The position numbers and the translations under genes are program-made. Positions 26,158-54,518 of a stretch of DNA of 64,000 nucleotides are shown piece after piece (the first letter of the stretch is position 1; every line of letters starts with the position of its first letter). The notes beneath the pieces are model-generated. The model saw nothing but the letters and a program-made list of their open reading frames with translations, was not told where the DNA came from and did not search any database. The stretch is taken from NCBI GenBank assembly GCA_964514305.1, contig CAZEQD010000001.1, forward strand, positions 27,181-91,180, read 5' to 3'. The DNA is from an uncultured Eubacteriales bacterium (GTDB lineage: Bacteria; Acidobacteriota; Aminicenantia; Aminicenantales; Aminicenantaceae).

Positions 26158-26324
26158 GCCGGTGGGGTCAGACCTTCATAAGTTTCATAACTTTAATTTT
26201 TACAATAACTGTAATAATTTTTGTCCCCTACAAACCGACGAGATATATCAATAGAGAAGCATAATTTATGAAACTTATGAAGGTCTGACCCCGTGTATAT
26301 TACCCCACTTTTCGTTATAGAGCC
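26158..26324. repeat. Dispersed repeat element, copy 1 (perfect 27-bp inverted repeats 26164-26190 / 26266-26292 flanking a ~75-bp core, plus ~35-bp conserved tail)
   Basis: Roughly 90% identical (by eye) to 52115-52307 in the same orientation. Arms ggggtcagaccttcataagtttcataa / ttatgaaacttatgaaggtctgacccc. Confidence 0.85.
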
Positions 26325-50038: not shown

Positions 50039-50344
50039 TCAGTCATTTTCCTCTTCTTCTAAGTCAGTAATGTTTCCTGACTGAAAAAGATAAGTTTTTA
50101 ATTCTTTAGCCATAGCTTGATCATTTCGTCTAATCCATTCCAGAATCATGGCCGCATGTTCTTTTTCTTCATCTCTGTTATGGGCTAATATTTCTTTTAA
50201 CTCTTTATTGTCTGTAGCATCTACTCGCTGTTGATACCAGTTGATGGCTTCTAATTCTTCAATCAGAGAATTTAAAGCTCGATGGAGATCTACTGTTTCC
50301 GGGCTGAGTTTATCAATTGATTCGTGATAGATACCTCCTCCCAT
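50039..50344 (-). CDS. Encapsulated-ferritin-like (EncFtn/Flp family) mini-ferritin, without recognisable encapsulin targeting peptide
   Basis: 101 aa. ELEAINWYQQRVDAT...ILAHNRDEEKEHAAMILEWIRRND matches the EncFtn E..Y / E..H di-iron motifs as I recall the family. Acidic C-terminus LEEEEND. Confidence 0.55.
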   Translation of the reverse strand: MGGGIYHESIDKLSPETVDLHRALNSLIEELEAINWYQQRVDATDNKELKEILAHNRDEEKEHAAMILEWIRRNDQAMAKELKTYLFQSGNITDLEEEEND

Positions 50345-52114: not shown

Positions 52115-52307
52115 CAGGTGGGGTCAGACCTTCATAAGTTTCATAACTTTAATTTTTACAATAATTGTAATAACTTTTGTCCCCTACAGACCGACGAAAT
52201 ATATCAATAGAGAAGCATAATTTATGAAACTTATGAAGGTCTGACCCCGTCTGCTGACTATTATATGTGTATATTACCCACTTTTCGTCAAAGAGCCCCT
52301 TTGTCTT
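52115..52307. repeat. Dispersed repeat element, copy 2 (27-bp perfect inverted repeats 52120-52146 / 52222-52248)
   Basis: Same element as 26158-26324, with an ~18-bp insertion in the tail. Same orientation. Confidence 0.85.
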
Positions 52308-52378
52308 CTTTAGGATACAATTGCTAAAAAAGAGAGGACAAAAATTGAGATAAAACCGCAATTTTTACTATAGAAATT

Positions 52379-52395
52379 TGGCATATATATTGCAT
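52379..52395 (+). promoter_or_regulatory. Candidate sigma-54 (-24/-12) promoter TGGCAT-N5-TTGCAT
   Basis: tTGGCATatataTTGCAt has GG and GC separated by exactly 10 nt and matches the TGGCAC-N5-TTGCW consensus. It lies 48 nt upstream of ATG 52443. Confidence 0.45.
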
Positions 52396-52442: not shown

Positions 52443-54518
52443 ATGCAGATGAACTTAAAAAGGACAAGCTTCATAGTTTTGTTGGCTGTTTTTTCTTTGC
52501 TGCCAGCTCTCCTTTTGGCTAATTCCAATTATGACTATGTTTATTCTCCCAAGACTGAAATATATTTTGGCCACATAAGCTACAGCGAAGTTATGAATGA
52601 TGGTCAAGACCCCGTCGTTTTAAGAGAAGGGAAAAAAATACCTGAAGTAGCGGTTTTAAACCTCCCCTTAACAACAGGAGATGTCATTATAACTCCGGCC
52701 AAGCGGAGATGTGAAATTCAGTTTGATACAGGGACTATAATCAGGCTTGATCACAATACTGAATTAAAGATTGAAACTATTCTGGCTCAGAGCCTTAGTT
52801 CACGAAAGAAGTTAACTAACCTTATTCTTAAGAAAGGACAAATTTATGTTATGTACAAGAAGTACAATTCTCGAGAGCTATTCCAGGTGATAACAACTAA
52901 GGCAGCAGTCAAAATGGACCATAAAACAGTAGCGATTGTCCAGGCCGGTTTGGATGGTCAAACAGATATCCAGGTTAAGCTGGGAAAAGCTGAAGTCTTA
53001 TATGGAGCTGACGAAGAGCATCTTCATAAAAAAAAGATTAAAAAACTGCAGAGACTGACTGTTTCCCCCAGTGACCAGATTACTTTGGGTAAGTATGAAC
53101 CTGAGATTGATTTTGAACTCTGGAATAAGGTTATAAATGAAAAATTTAAGACACTTCATCAAGGACAAAGTTTTCTACCCCAACCTATCCAGAAATTGCC
53201 CCCAGCAGTTTTTTATTTTGCTCAGAAATACTCTAATGTTTATGGTGAATGGGTCTGGAACAGTCTCTACGGTTATGTCTGGCGTCCTAACTATAATGAT
53301 TATTATCCTTGGGGGAGATGGCAGCCTTATTTTTATGGTCAGTGGAGAGAGATTCAAGGGCAGCTCTTCTGGGTGCCTGAGGAAAGCTGGGGTTGGGTTC
53401 CCTATCATTTGGGCCTCTGGCTCTGGGACAAAAAATACGGCTGGATATGGCTGCCGGGCTCTGCTTTTGCTCCAGCTTGGGTAGCTTGGAATTTTTACAT
53501 GGGCTACTATACCTGGAGACCTTGGACGCTCTGGGATTGGTGTGGCTATTATTACCCAGATTATTATTTAAGCAGTGCTTATGATTATTACTATTATGCT
53601 TATCCTTATGATTACTGGCAGTCAGCATATTACAGGCAACCTGAAAATCAGAAAGGCCAGAAAATTCTTCATGTAATCCGCAAAGATCAATTGCAAAGAA
53701 AAGAAAACCCTCCCTATCCTCTTCCCAAAAGTTTTAAAAAGGCCTACCAGAATTTTGCTAATGCTTTAAAGAAAAATGATGAAAGGGCAATTTCCCTATT
53801 GAAAAAGATACCTGAAGGCATAATTGTGGTCAAAACTAAAGACCTAAATACTCCTCACCTTCAGAAGGTATCTCTGGGATTAGAGCAAATTTCAGGAGAT
53901 GTAAAAAACCTGAAGATTTCTACCAGGCCCAAGTTAAAAGGTTGTGATTTGACTCCTTATAGAAAAGCAGTTGGTGACTTCAAAAGGAATGCCATTATCT
54001 CAAAATTAAGGAAATATGTGTTTTCCTCCTTTTCAAATAAGAAAAAAACTGCATTCTCTAAAACAAAAATTTCTTCAGCTAAGCCTGAAGCAAGCTTTGA
54101 ATGGAGGACAATTCCTTTTAGCAGCAGTAAATTCATGCCTCAAACTGCAGGAAAAGAATTTCCAGCCAAAGTTGGTTCTTTATCTCAGAGACCCATTCAT
54201 AGAGCTCCATCGATTCGCCTCAGGGATTGGAATCCTGATGTGAAAGTAGCCCAGAAGATAGGGGTAACCATAAATTATGACAGTCCCTCTAACGAAATAA
54301 GATGCCCTTCCTTGGGCCTTTCTTCCAAAAATGTAGCTGTATCCAGATCTGGCGTCAGCCTGAGAAGTGGATTTTATTCTGCTGGAGGAGGTTTTTATTC
54401 ATCTTCTGGGGGTGCAGGAGGAAGTCAAGCTTTACCTGGTTCTCATAGAGGTTCTTCGGGTTCGCATTTCAGCTCCGGTAGCAGTGCCAAAAGTGGGAGC
54501 AGACCCAAGAAAAATTAA
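52443..54518 (+). CDS. Secreted FecR-like protein with Trp/Tyr-rich low-complexity region and Ser/Gly-rich C-terminal tail
   Basis: Signal peptide. FecR-like beta region (VIITPAKRRCEIQFDTGTIIRLDHNTELKIE). Residues ~270-400 are 35-40% W+Y. C-terminus GGFYSSSGGAGGSQ...SGSS. Confidence 0.6.
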   Translation: MQMNLKRTSFIVLLAVFSLLPALLLANSNYDYVYSPKTEIYFGHISYSEVMNDGQDPVVLREGKKIPEVAVLNLPLTTGDVIITPAKRRCEIQFDTGTIIRLDHNTELKIETILAQSLSSRKKLTNLILKKGQIYVMYKKYNSRELFQVITTKAAVKMDHKTVAIVQAGLDGQTDIQVKLGKAEVLYGADEEHLHKKKIKKLQRLTVSPSDQITLGKYEPEIDFELWNKVINEKFKTLHQGQSFLPQPIQKLPPAVFYFAQKYSNVYGEWVWNSLYGYVWRPNYNDYYPWGRWQPYFYGQWREIQGQLFWVPEESWGWVPYHLGLWLWDKKYGWIWLPGSAFAPAWVAWNFYMGYYTWRPWTLWDWCGYYYPDYYLSSAYDYYYYAYPYDYWQSAYYRQPENQKGQKILHVIRKDQLQRKENPPYPLPKSFKKAYQNFANALKKNDERAISLLKKIPEGIIVVKTKDLNTPHLQKVSLGLEQISGDVKNLKISTRPKLKGCDLTPYRKAVGDFKRNAIISKLRKYVFSSFSNKKKTAFSKTKISSAKPEASFEWRTIPFSSSKFMPQTAGKEFPAKVGSLSQRPIHRAPSIRLRDWNPDVKVAQKIGVTINYDSPSNEIRCPSLGLSSKNVAVSRSGVSLRSGFYSAGGGFYSSSGGAGGSQALPGSHRGSSGSHFSSGSSAKSGSRPKKN

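Follow-up and report, generated by a model that had tools for sequence, protein, structure and literature searches.

FecR domains (PF04773) are known from the periplasmic part of cell-surface-signalling anti-sigma factors such as FecR and PupR (structures 6ovk and 4m0n), and Leptospira LipL45 and Lsa33 are exported proteins with a FecR domain but no anti-sigma module. The Pfam family DUF6600 (PF20245) has no known function or solved structure; its members in Verrucomicrobiota, Proteobacteria and other phyla share the core Y-G-x-W ... W-G-W-x-P-x-H-x-G-x-W ... G-W-x-W-x-P-G. Here we describe a 691-residue protein that combines the two domains. It is encoded by a single open reading frame (ORF) in the 64-kb window, by which we mean the whole stretch of 64,000 nucleotides analyzed from contig CAZEQD010000001.1 of an uncultured bacterium of the Aminicenantaceae. 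A first-pass annotation of this DNA had singled out a Trp/Tyr-rich segment as extraordinary and the protein as a possible novel envelope-associated sensor or structural protein. We find that the FecR/DUF6600 protein is a genuine, well-conserved member of a known, uncharacterized family, neither a new module type nor a characterized one. Our analysis adds a hairpin-repeat account of the unusual composition, a division of the segment into folded and disordered parts, a conserved sigma-54 promoter and a set of lineage-specific C-terminal modules.

The aromatic stretch under study (53250-53636) encodes residues 270-398. Its in-frame translation is exactly the peptide quoted in the first-pass annotation, contains the W-x-W, GW and YY motifs noted there and is indeed more than one third aromatic: 27 Tyr, 20 Trp and 4 Phe among 129 residues amount to 39.5% (36.4% for Trp and Tyr together), compared with 8.2% in the remainder of the protein. 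Across 11,149 windows of 129 residues drawn from the 49 remaining long ORFs in the 64-kb window, aromatic content averages 9.9% (standard deviation 3.5%) and reaches a maximum of 20.2%. Trp accounts for 15.5% of the stretch, as against 0.95% of the 49 other proteins. The stretch is genuine and far beyond the local compositional range.

One concern was an artefact, namely that frameshifted or non-coding DNA reads by chance as Trp and Tyr codons, and three alternative-frame ORFs of 63-115 residues do overlap within the same DNA (53137-53484 (+), 53287-53628 (-) and 53393-53584 (+)). We threaded the codons against those of the closest ortholog (L089, 81% identical). In the DUF6600 part (residues 246-366), nucleotide differences number 6/0/25 at codon positions 1/2/3, with 25 synonymous and 5 non-synonymous codon changes, the tightest constraint within the protein; this pattern backs the annotated frame and none of the three overlapping ones. 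An identical protein (P0001) is already on record, more than 860 homologs keep the same frame, the Trp positions are invariant among orthologs and the Pfam match is significant. The third-position check and the homologs dispose of the frameshift concern, whose remaining probability we regard as negligible, and the overlapping ORFs are best explained as by-products of stop-poor TGG, TAT and GGN codons.

Two thirds of the aromatic region belong to DUF6600. The match to PF20245 scores 59.3 bits (E 4.4e-16, cutoff 27) over positions 5-98 of the 102-position profile and rises to 63.4 bits when the aromatic segment is excised and rescanned; with E values allowed up to 10, the Pfam scan of the excised segment returned nothing besides DUF6600, and no cell-wall- or choline-binding or other aromatic repeat family. 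The domain is so labeled in public annotation and widespread, and the aromatic region is not a new module. Nor is it a well-characterized repeat family with a known function, DUF6600 being a domain of unknown function. In a full-length AlphaFold2 model (117-sequence alignment, mean predicted local distance difference test score (pLDDT) 74.6, predicted template modeling score 0.72), this part is arranged in four beta-hairpins with strands at residues 268-273/277-282, 299-304/307-312, 324-329/333-338 and 347-352/355-360 (pLDDT 83-94). Sixteen Trp are invariant in an alignment of 27 orthologs (W270, 272, 280, 293, 301, 310, 316, 318, 326, 328, 334, 336, 346, 349, 358 and 361), as are several Gly and Pro of the domain; when 117 orthologs are aligned, 11 of the 16 are still invariant and the remaining five are at least 90% conserved. 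The core WGW-P-H-G-W-W-G-W-W-P is retained in distant DUF6600 members.

The hairpins resemble one another. Hairpin 1 (GEWVWNSLYGYVWRP) aligns with hairpin 3 (GLWLWDKKYGWIWLP, or L-W-L-W-D-K-K-Y-G-W-I-W-L) in hhalign with an E value of 2e-5, and DUF6600 therefore reads as an internal repeat of G-x-W-x-W-turn-G-x-x-W-x-P. In the predicted strand register, invariant Trp would face each other across strands in the pairs W270/W280, W301/W310, W326/W336 together with W328/W334, and W349/W358. Designed tryptophan-zipper beta-hairpins are synthetic peptides of 12-16 residues, for example S-W-T-W-E-N-G-K-W-T-W-K, and have in common with DUF6600 the W-x-W ... W-x-W arrangement around a tight turn; the likeness is one of pattern, with cross-strand Trp stacking in DUF6600 suggested by the register. 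The codon comparison shows DUF6600 as the part of the protein under the strongest purifying selection. For residues 265-361, the near-invariant Trp and the predicted beta-hairpin fold speak against a tract that is no more than low complexity or amyloid.

Low-complexity behavior within the aromatic segment is confined to residues 362-409. This Tyr-rich linker is unalignable between orthologs and 21-51 residues long, with its composition kept (Y 21%, G 12%). The AlphaFold2 model is disordered at residues 370-406 and again at 637-691.

The gene is preceded by a sequence that fits sigma-54 (RpoN)-dependent promoters, with TGGCAY at -24 and TTGCW at -12 at canonical spacing. The element starts 65 nt and ends 48 nt before the ATG and is the one place in the window, both strands considered, that matches TGGCAY-N5-TTGCW; TTGGCAT-N5-TTGC is invariant in an alignment of four loci. 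We then surveyed the 78 orthologous loci with usable upstream sequence and found TGGCAY-N6-TGC upstream in 75 of them, compared with four sites in 1.07 Mb of background (0.004 per kb). Comparative evidence of this kind strongly backs the sigma-54 control that had been proposed as possible. Because the promoter is clearly conserved, expression of the FecR/DUF6600 gene is probably conditional. No rpoN or enhancer-binding protein gene (an ORF with an RpoN box or of the GAFTGA type) is found in the 64-kb window. The element lies 29-67 nt from the start codon in 58 loci and 489-946 nt from it in 17 loci, at least 15 of which have an extra small gene downstream of the element.

In about 17 orthologous loci (L002 (5367-5933), L009, L024, L028, L029, L036-L040, L044, L045, L054, L056, L062, L063 and L082), this small gene, of 157-281 residues, separates the FecR/DUF6600 gene from the sigma-54 element. 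Judged by a lipobox Cys its product is a lipoprotein; it has a Tyr/Trp-rich core (10-19% Tyr) with the motif W-N-P-F-W-x-Y-G, then K-T-x-I-T-K-R-Q-L-K as a second motif and a tail rich in Ser, Thr and Arg that closes with VKKK. In hhalign it aligns with residues ~350-422 of the FecR/DUF6600 protein (96% probability, E 4e-9, with composition bias likely) and also with the Ser-rich tail. The small Tyr-rich lipoprotein matches no Pfam family, and no copy of it occurs in the 64-kb window.

Outside the aromatic segment, the protein has a composite architecture whose coordinates are collected in the table. The N-terminus, claimed earlier to be that of a secreted protein, does look like a signal peptide when read by eye: it has a basic K5/R7, a 17-residue hydrophobic core and the junction LLA-NS, with no lipobox Cys, and the pattern is repeated in orthologs. 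Residues 5-24 are modeled as a lone helix, the sole hydrophobic one, and the FecR-like fold begins about 15 residues past the signal-peptide-like part. Export via Sec is the probable consequence of this sequence pattern. The FecR-like domain reported in the first-pass annotation is confirmed by PF04773 (E 7.2e-9, 36.4 bits, cutoff 24) and by Foldseek, which with the full model returns FecR-domain structures only, namely BDI_1681 (4m0n, 4m0h) and the PupR C-terminal domain (6ovk), with E values of 8e-7 to 6e-6. The protein has the beta-sandwich and the Pfam domain in common with FecR/PupR anti-sigma factors. Unlike them, it has neither an anti-sigma domain nor a membrane helix, as judged from the sequence and the AlphaFold2 model, and no ECF (extracytoplasmic function) sigma or TonB-dependent transducer gene is adjacent within the window. 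LipL45 and Lsa33 likewise have no anti-sigma module; this protein has no lipobox. The NCBIfam models for these two (NF033165, 25.1 bits; NF047849, 28.5 bits) match the FecR region only and stay far below their cutoffs of 350 and 420.

Features of the FecR/DUF6600 locus (positions in the 64-kb window; residues of the 691-residue protein in brackets)
Feature	Position	Strand	Evidence
Sigma-54-type promoter element TTGGCATATATATTGCA, TTGGCAT-ATATA-TTGCA (-24 GG / -12 GC)	52378-52394	+	Consensus match, conservation
Gene for the FecR/DUF6600 protein, probably exported	52443-54518	+	ORF list, homologs, Pfam
Signal-peptide-like N-terminus (1-26)	52443-52520	+	Read by eye
FecR domain (Pfam 80-183; beta-sandwich ~40-217)	52680-52991	+	PF04773, Foldseek, pLDDT 86-98
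DUF6600 domain, folded portion of aromatic segment (265-361)	53235-53525	+	PF20245 match, AlphaFold2, conservation
DUF6600 beta-hairpins, four	53244-53288, 53337-53378, 53412-53456, 53481-53522	+	AlphaFold2
Tyr-rich low-complexity linker, unfolded portion of aromatic segment (362-409)	53526-53669	+	Outside Pfam match, pLDDT 35-40
Conserved, mainly helical region opening with (V/I)-I-R-K-D-Q-L-K-K (410-536)	53670-54050	+	Two ortholog alignments, helices pLDDT up to 95
C-terminal motif R-F-R-D-W-N-P-D ... Y-S-S-R-x-N-E-I-x-C-P-x-L-G-L-S-S (590-636)	54210-54350	+	Conservation, pLDDT 91-93
Ser/Gly-rich disordered tail with terminal Lys cluster, ...SRPKKN (637-691)	54351-54515	+	pLDDT 32-37

The Ser/Gly-rich tail had been placed right after the aromatic stretch. 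The tail is real, but about 230 residues, mostly conserved, lie between the two: a helical region that opens with I-R-K-D-Q-L-K-K in this protein, a variable disordered stretch and the R-F-R-D-W-N-P-D motif. Within the latter, none of 117 orthologs departs from D595, N597, D599, Y612, N617 or P622, and the codon pattern is constrained. Pfam has no family for the helical region, the C-terminal motif or the tail. Across orthologs the tail consists of 41% Ser and 21% Gly. In 116 of 117 orthologs the final four residues include Lys; the very last residue is K in 72, and most of the others finish with K-K-N/D/R/H. The extreme C-terminus (54495-54515) is conserved despite the low complexity of the tail. 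Braun's lipoprotein is joined to peptidoglycan via its terminal Lys; to see a comparable sorting or attachment signal here would be pure speculation. Two Cys also stand out. Cys90 (52710-52712), part of the FecR strand R-R-C-E-I-Q-F-D, is present in all 117 orthologs; Cys621 (54303-54305), part of the motif N-E-I-x-C-P, is at least 90% conserved among them. A disulfide joining the FecR and C-terminal parts through these residues is doubtful because some orthologs retain just one of the two.

We then asked how widely this plan is distributed. The best-matching homologs listed are full-length, 45-82% identical and have the same domain content, and of the more than 860 homologs all named ones are from Aminicenantes. 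The 80 best genomic loci are without exception from metagenome bins of Aminicenantes type, some of them under other automatic labels, and the gene is best explained as a near-universal single gene of this phylum. DUF6600 itself reaches much further. A phmmer search with residues 246-366 against 1.84 billion representative proteins (clusters at 50% identity) gave 6,703 clusters at E <=0.001 and 679 at E <=1e-10. Among 79 distant matches sampled, PF20245 is present in all 79 and FecR also in 47, and 37-41 of the 79 likewise match the LipL45/Lsa33 models. Proteobacteria have proteins of the same architecture, from signal peptide through FecR and DUF6600 to a long low-complexity tail, as in Cupriavidus metallidurans CH34 (847 residues, Gln-rich tail) and Legionella adelaidensis (800 residues, Pro-rich tail). 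In Verrucomicrobiota, DUF6600 often occurs as a stand-alone protein with a disordered tail. Compared with other PF20245 proteins, that of Aminicenantes adds the Tyr-rich linker, the helical region, the R-F-R-D-W-N-P-D motif and the Ser/Gly tail, where other lineages have Pro-rich, Gln-rich or Ala-rich tails instead. The gene surroundings of distant stand-alone DUF6600 genes have no partner in common. On the Legionella adelaidensis plasmid NZ_LR134438.1 (L091:1-6749), the FecR/DUF6600 gene comes immediately after two genes of the alpha-amylase family that share its strand, the sole glycan-related context seen for the family.

Within the window the FecR/DUF6600 gene is monocistronic. It is divergent from the genes for FBPase_3, NUDIX and EncFtn and from the mraZ-led division and cell-wall (dcw) cluster, and convergent with a gene for a Csd3-like M23 peptidase; the neighbors identified by Pfam are FBPase, NUDIX, EncFtn, M23 peptidase and a Na/Ala symporter. 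Among orthologous loci, 50 of 64 have a convergent M23 gene downstream and 37 of 67 a divergent FBPase gene upstream. Such synteny carries little functional weight, since these neighbors are not co-transcribed and all the genomes compared are from the same phylum. Beyond the M23 gene, three genes are clustered in some orthologous loci (for example L001:9581-11360 and L002:9555-11372): one for an ECF sigma factor, one of 160 residues with an anti-sigma-like N-terminus containing Cys and His, and one of 242 residues with a Secretin_N domain. We rejected this cluster as a core partner, since only 15-17 of the 80 orthologous loci have it and the 64-kb window does not.

Taken together, we judge it somewhat better than an even chance that the aromatic stretch consists of DUF6600 and a disordered Tyr-rich linker within a Sec-exported, sigma-54-transcribed envelope protein, in which the aromatic residues serve mainly to build the fold. 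The aromatic load would then be chiefly architectural, with cross-strand Trp pairs stabilizing short hairpins as in tryptophan zippers. The FecR-like beta-sandwich and DUF6600 would together make up a globular head that interacts with other components in the periplasm or cell envelope. The linker and the Lys-ended Ser/Gly tail may serve as flexible tethers or attachment segments. Several points weigh against this reading. The hairpin fold comes from AlphaFold2 alone, and no solved structure like DUF6600 is found in the PDB by sequence, profile (hidden Markov model) or fold. A model of DUF6600 by itself is weaker (pLDDT 63, 30-sequence alignment), which may reflect lost contacts or merely the shallower alignment. 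The pairing and burial of Trp derive from strand register. Export was judged by eye from the sequence, and the envelope role draws on the signal peptide and on what is generally known of FecR domains and sigma-54 regulons. The M23 synteny is convergent, not co-transcribed, and may merely reflect a phylum-wide gene order. Finally, a literature search found no paper on DUF6600 or PF20245 and no experiment. It likewise returned nothing on tryptophan-rich FecR-domain proteins or on sigma-54 in Aminicenantes, and publications on LipL45 and FecR added no information. Foldseek with the DUF6600-only model gave no match (best E 1.6, probability <=0.12), and searches of PHROGs and Rfam gave none. RecA-type PDB matches to the aromatic domain were discarded, as they came from artificial tandem-RecA fusion chains that sum sub-threshold matches; a single RecA has an E value of about 1.

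Carbohydrate-binding modules and choline- or cell-wall-binding hairpin repeats bind through exposed aromatic platforms, and DUF6600 could in principle work in the same way, with exposed Trp/Tyr platforms that bind peptidoglycan or another polysaccharide and a protein anchored to, or organizing, the wall. Its aromatic-rich repeats are likewise beta-hairpins, and the gene adjoins the dcw cluster and frequently converges with that for a peptidoglycan peptidase. The alpha-amylase genes in Legionella adelaidensis point the same way, but are a single instance; the surroundings of distant members have no consistent glycan genes, and neither sequence nor fold matches a carbohydrate- or cell-wall-binding family. 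Moreover, hairpin 3 is hydrophobic on its non-Trp face as well (L/I, by strand register), which suggests burial and not an open platform. We therefore rate glycan binding as unlikely, while granting it some weight. Self-assembly has a slimmer chance still. According to this proposal, the Tyr-rich and Ser/Gly-rich parts, perhaps with the Trp hairpins, drive amyloid-like, phase-separating or Tyr-cross-linked assembly into an adhesive matrix, or binding at the membrane interface, and the folded domains are secondary. In its favor, the linker retains its composition and not its sequence, and in about 17 loci the co-transcribed small Tyr-rich lipoprotein has the same 'I-x-K-x-Q-L' motif, a Ser-rich tail ending in KKK and the same sigma-54 promoter. 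The linker is short, however, and two thirds of the aromatics belong to a domain in which their positions are fixed, the model is highly confident and purifying selection is strong, as is typical of a globular fold.

The FecR domain and its fold could indicate a cell-surface-signalling sensor like FecR/PupR, in which the FecR domain relays the signal of an outer-membrane partner to an ECF sigma factor and DUF6600 is an extra sensing module. The ECF sigma, zinc-finger anti-sigma-like and Secretin_N genes past the M23 gene would suit such a system in the minority of loci that have them; elsewhere, the window included, they are missing. The envelope-associated sensor suggested in the first-pass annotation fares poorly on the protein itself, which has a signal peptide only and no N-terminal anti-sigma domain, membrane helix or output domain. 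No TonB-dependent transducer gene is adjacent, and the gene's own promoter is of the sigma-54 and not the ECF type. We consider a sensor of this kind improbable.

Returning to the favored reading of an exported envelope protein built around DUF6600, we can extend it to a more specific and rather unlikely proposal. DUF6600 would be a tryptophan-zipper hairpin fold that occurs in nature and has no solved relative, heading a sigma-54-controlled envelope module of Aminicenantes. Together with the co-transcribed Tyr-rich lipoprotein of some genomes, the Tyr-rich segment and the Lys-ended Ser-rich tail might tether or cross-link envelope layers, possibly via the terminal Lys as in Braun's lipoprotein. 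If true, the envelope-tether idea would bear on how the cell envelope is constructed in this uncultured phylum. As it stands, the protein is a well-described member of an uncharacterized family and not a new type of system. For a family of about 6,700 clusters at 50% identity spread across many phyla, the locus nevertheless offers three handles: a repeated Trp-hairpin motif that accounts for the unusual makeup, a conserved sigma-54 promoter that makes the regulator searchable, and a recurring plan of signal peptide, FecR, DUF6600 and disordered tail, with a Tyr-rich lipoprotein partner in some genomes.

Two further observations concern the surroundings of the gene. An element of about 135 bp is present in the window in two ~97% identical copies (26162-26294 and 52118-52250) that have unrelated flanks and end in 27-nt perfect terminal inverted repeats (GGGGTCAGACCTTCATAAGTTTCATAA). 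Because of the near-identical copies, the inverted repeats and the unrelated flanks it looks like a miniature inverted-repeat transposable element. The second copy is intergenic, 128 nt upstream of the sigma-54 element, and an Rfam search covering that copy only gave no match. The EncFtn-like (encapsulated-ferritin-type) gene at 50039-50344 (-) lies between the NUDIX gene and an 86-residue ORF, which sits where other loci have a DUF2007 gene. No encapsulin shell gene adjoins the EncFtn-like gene, and the same layout is found in L002 and L089.

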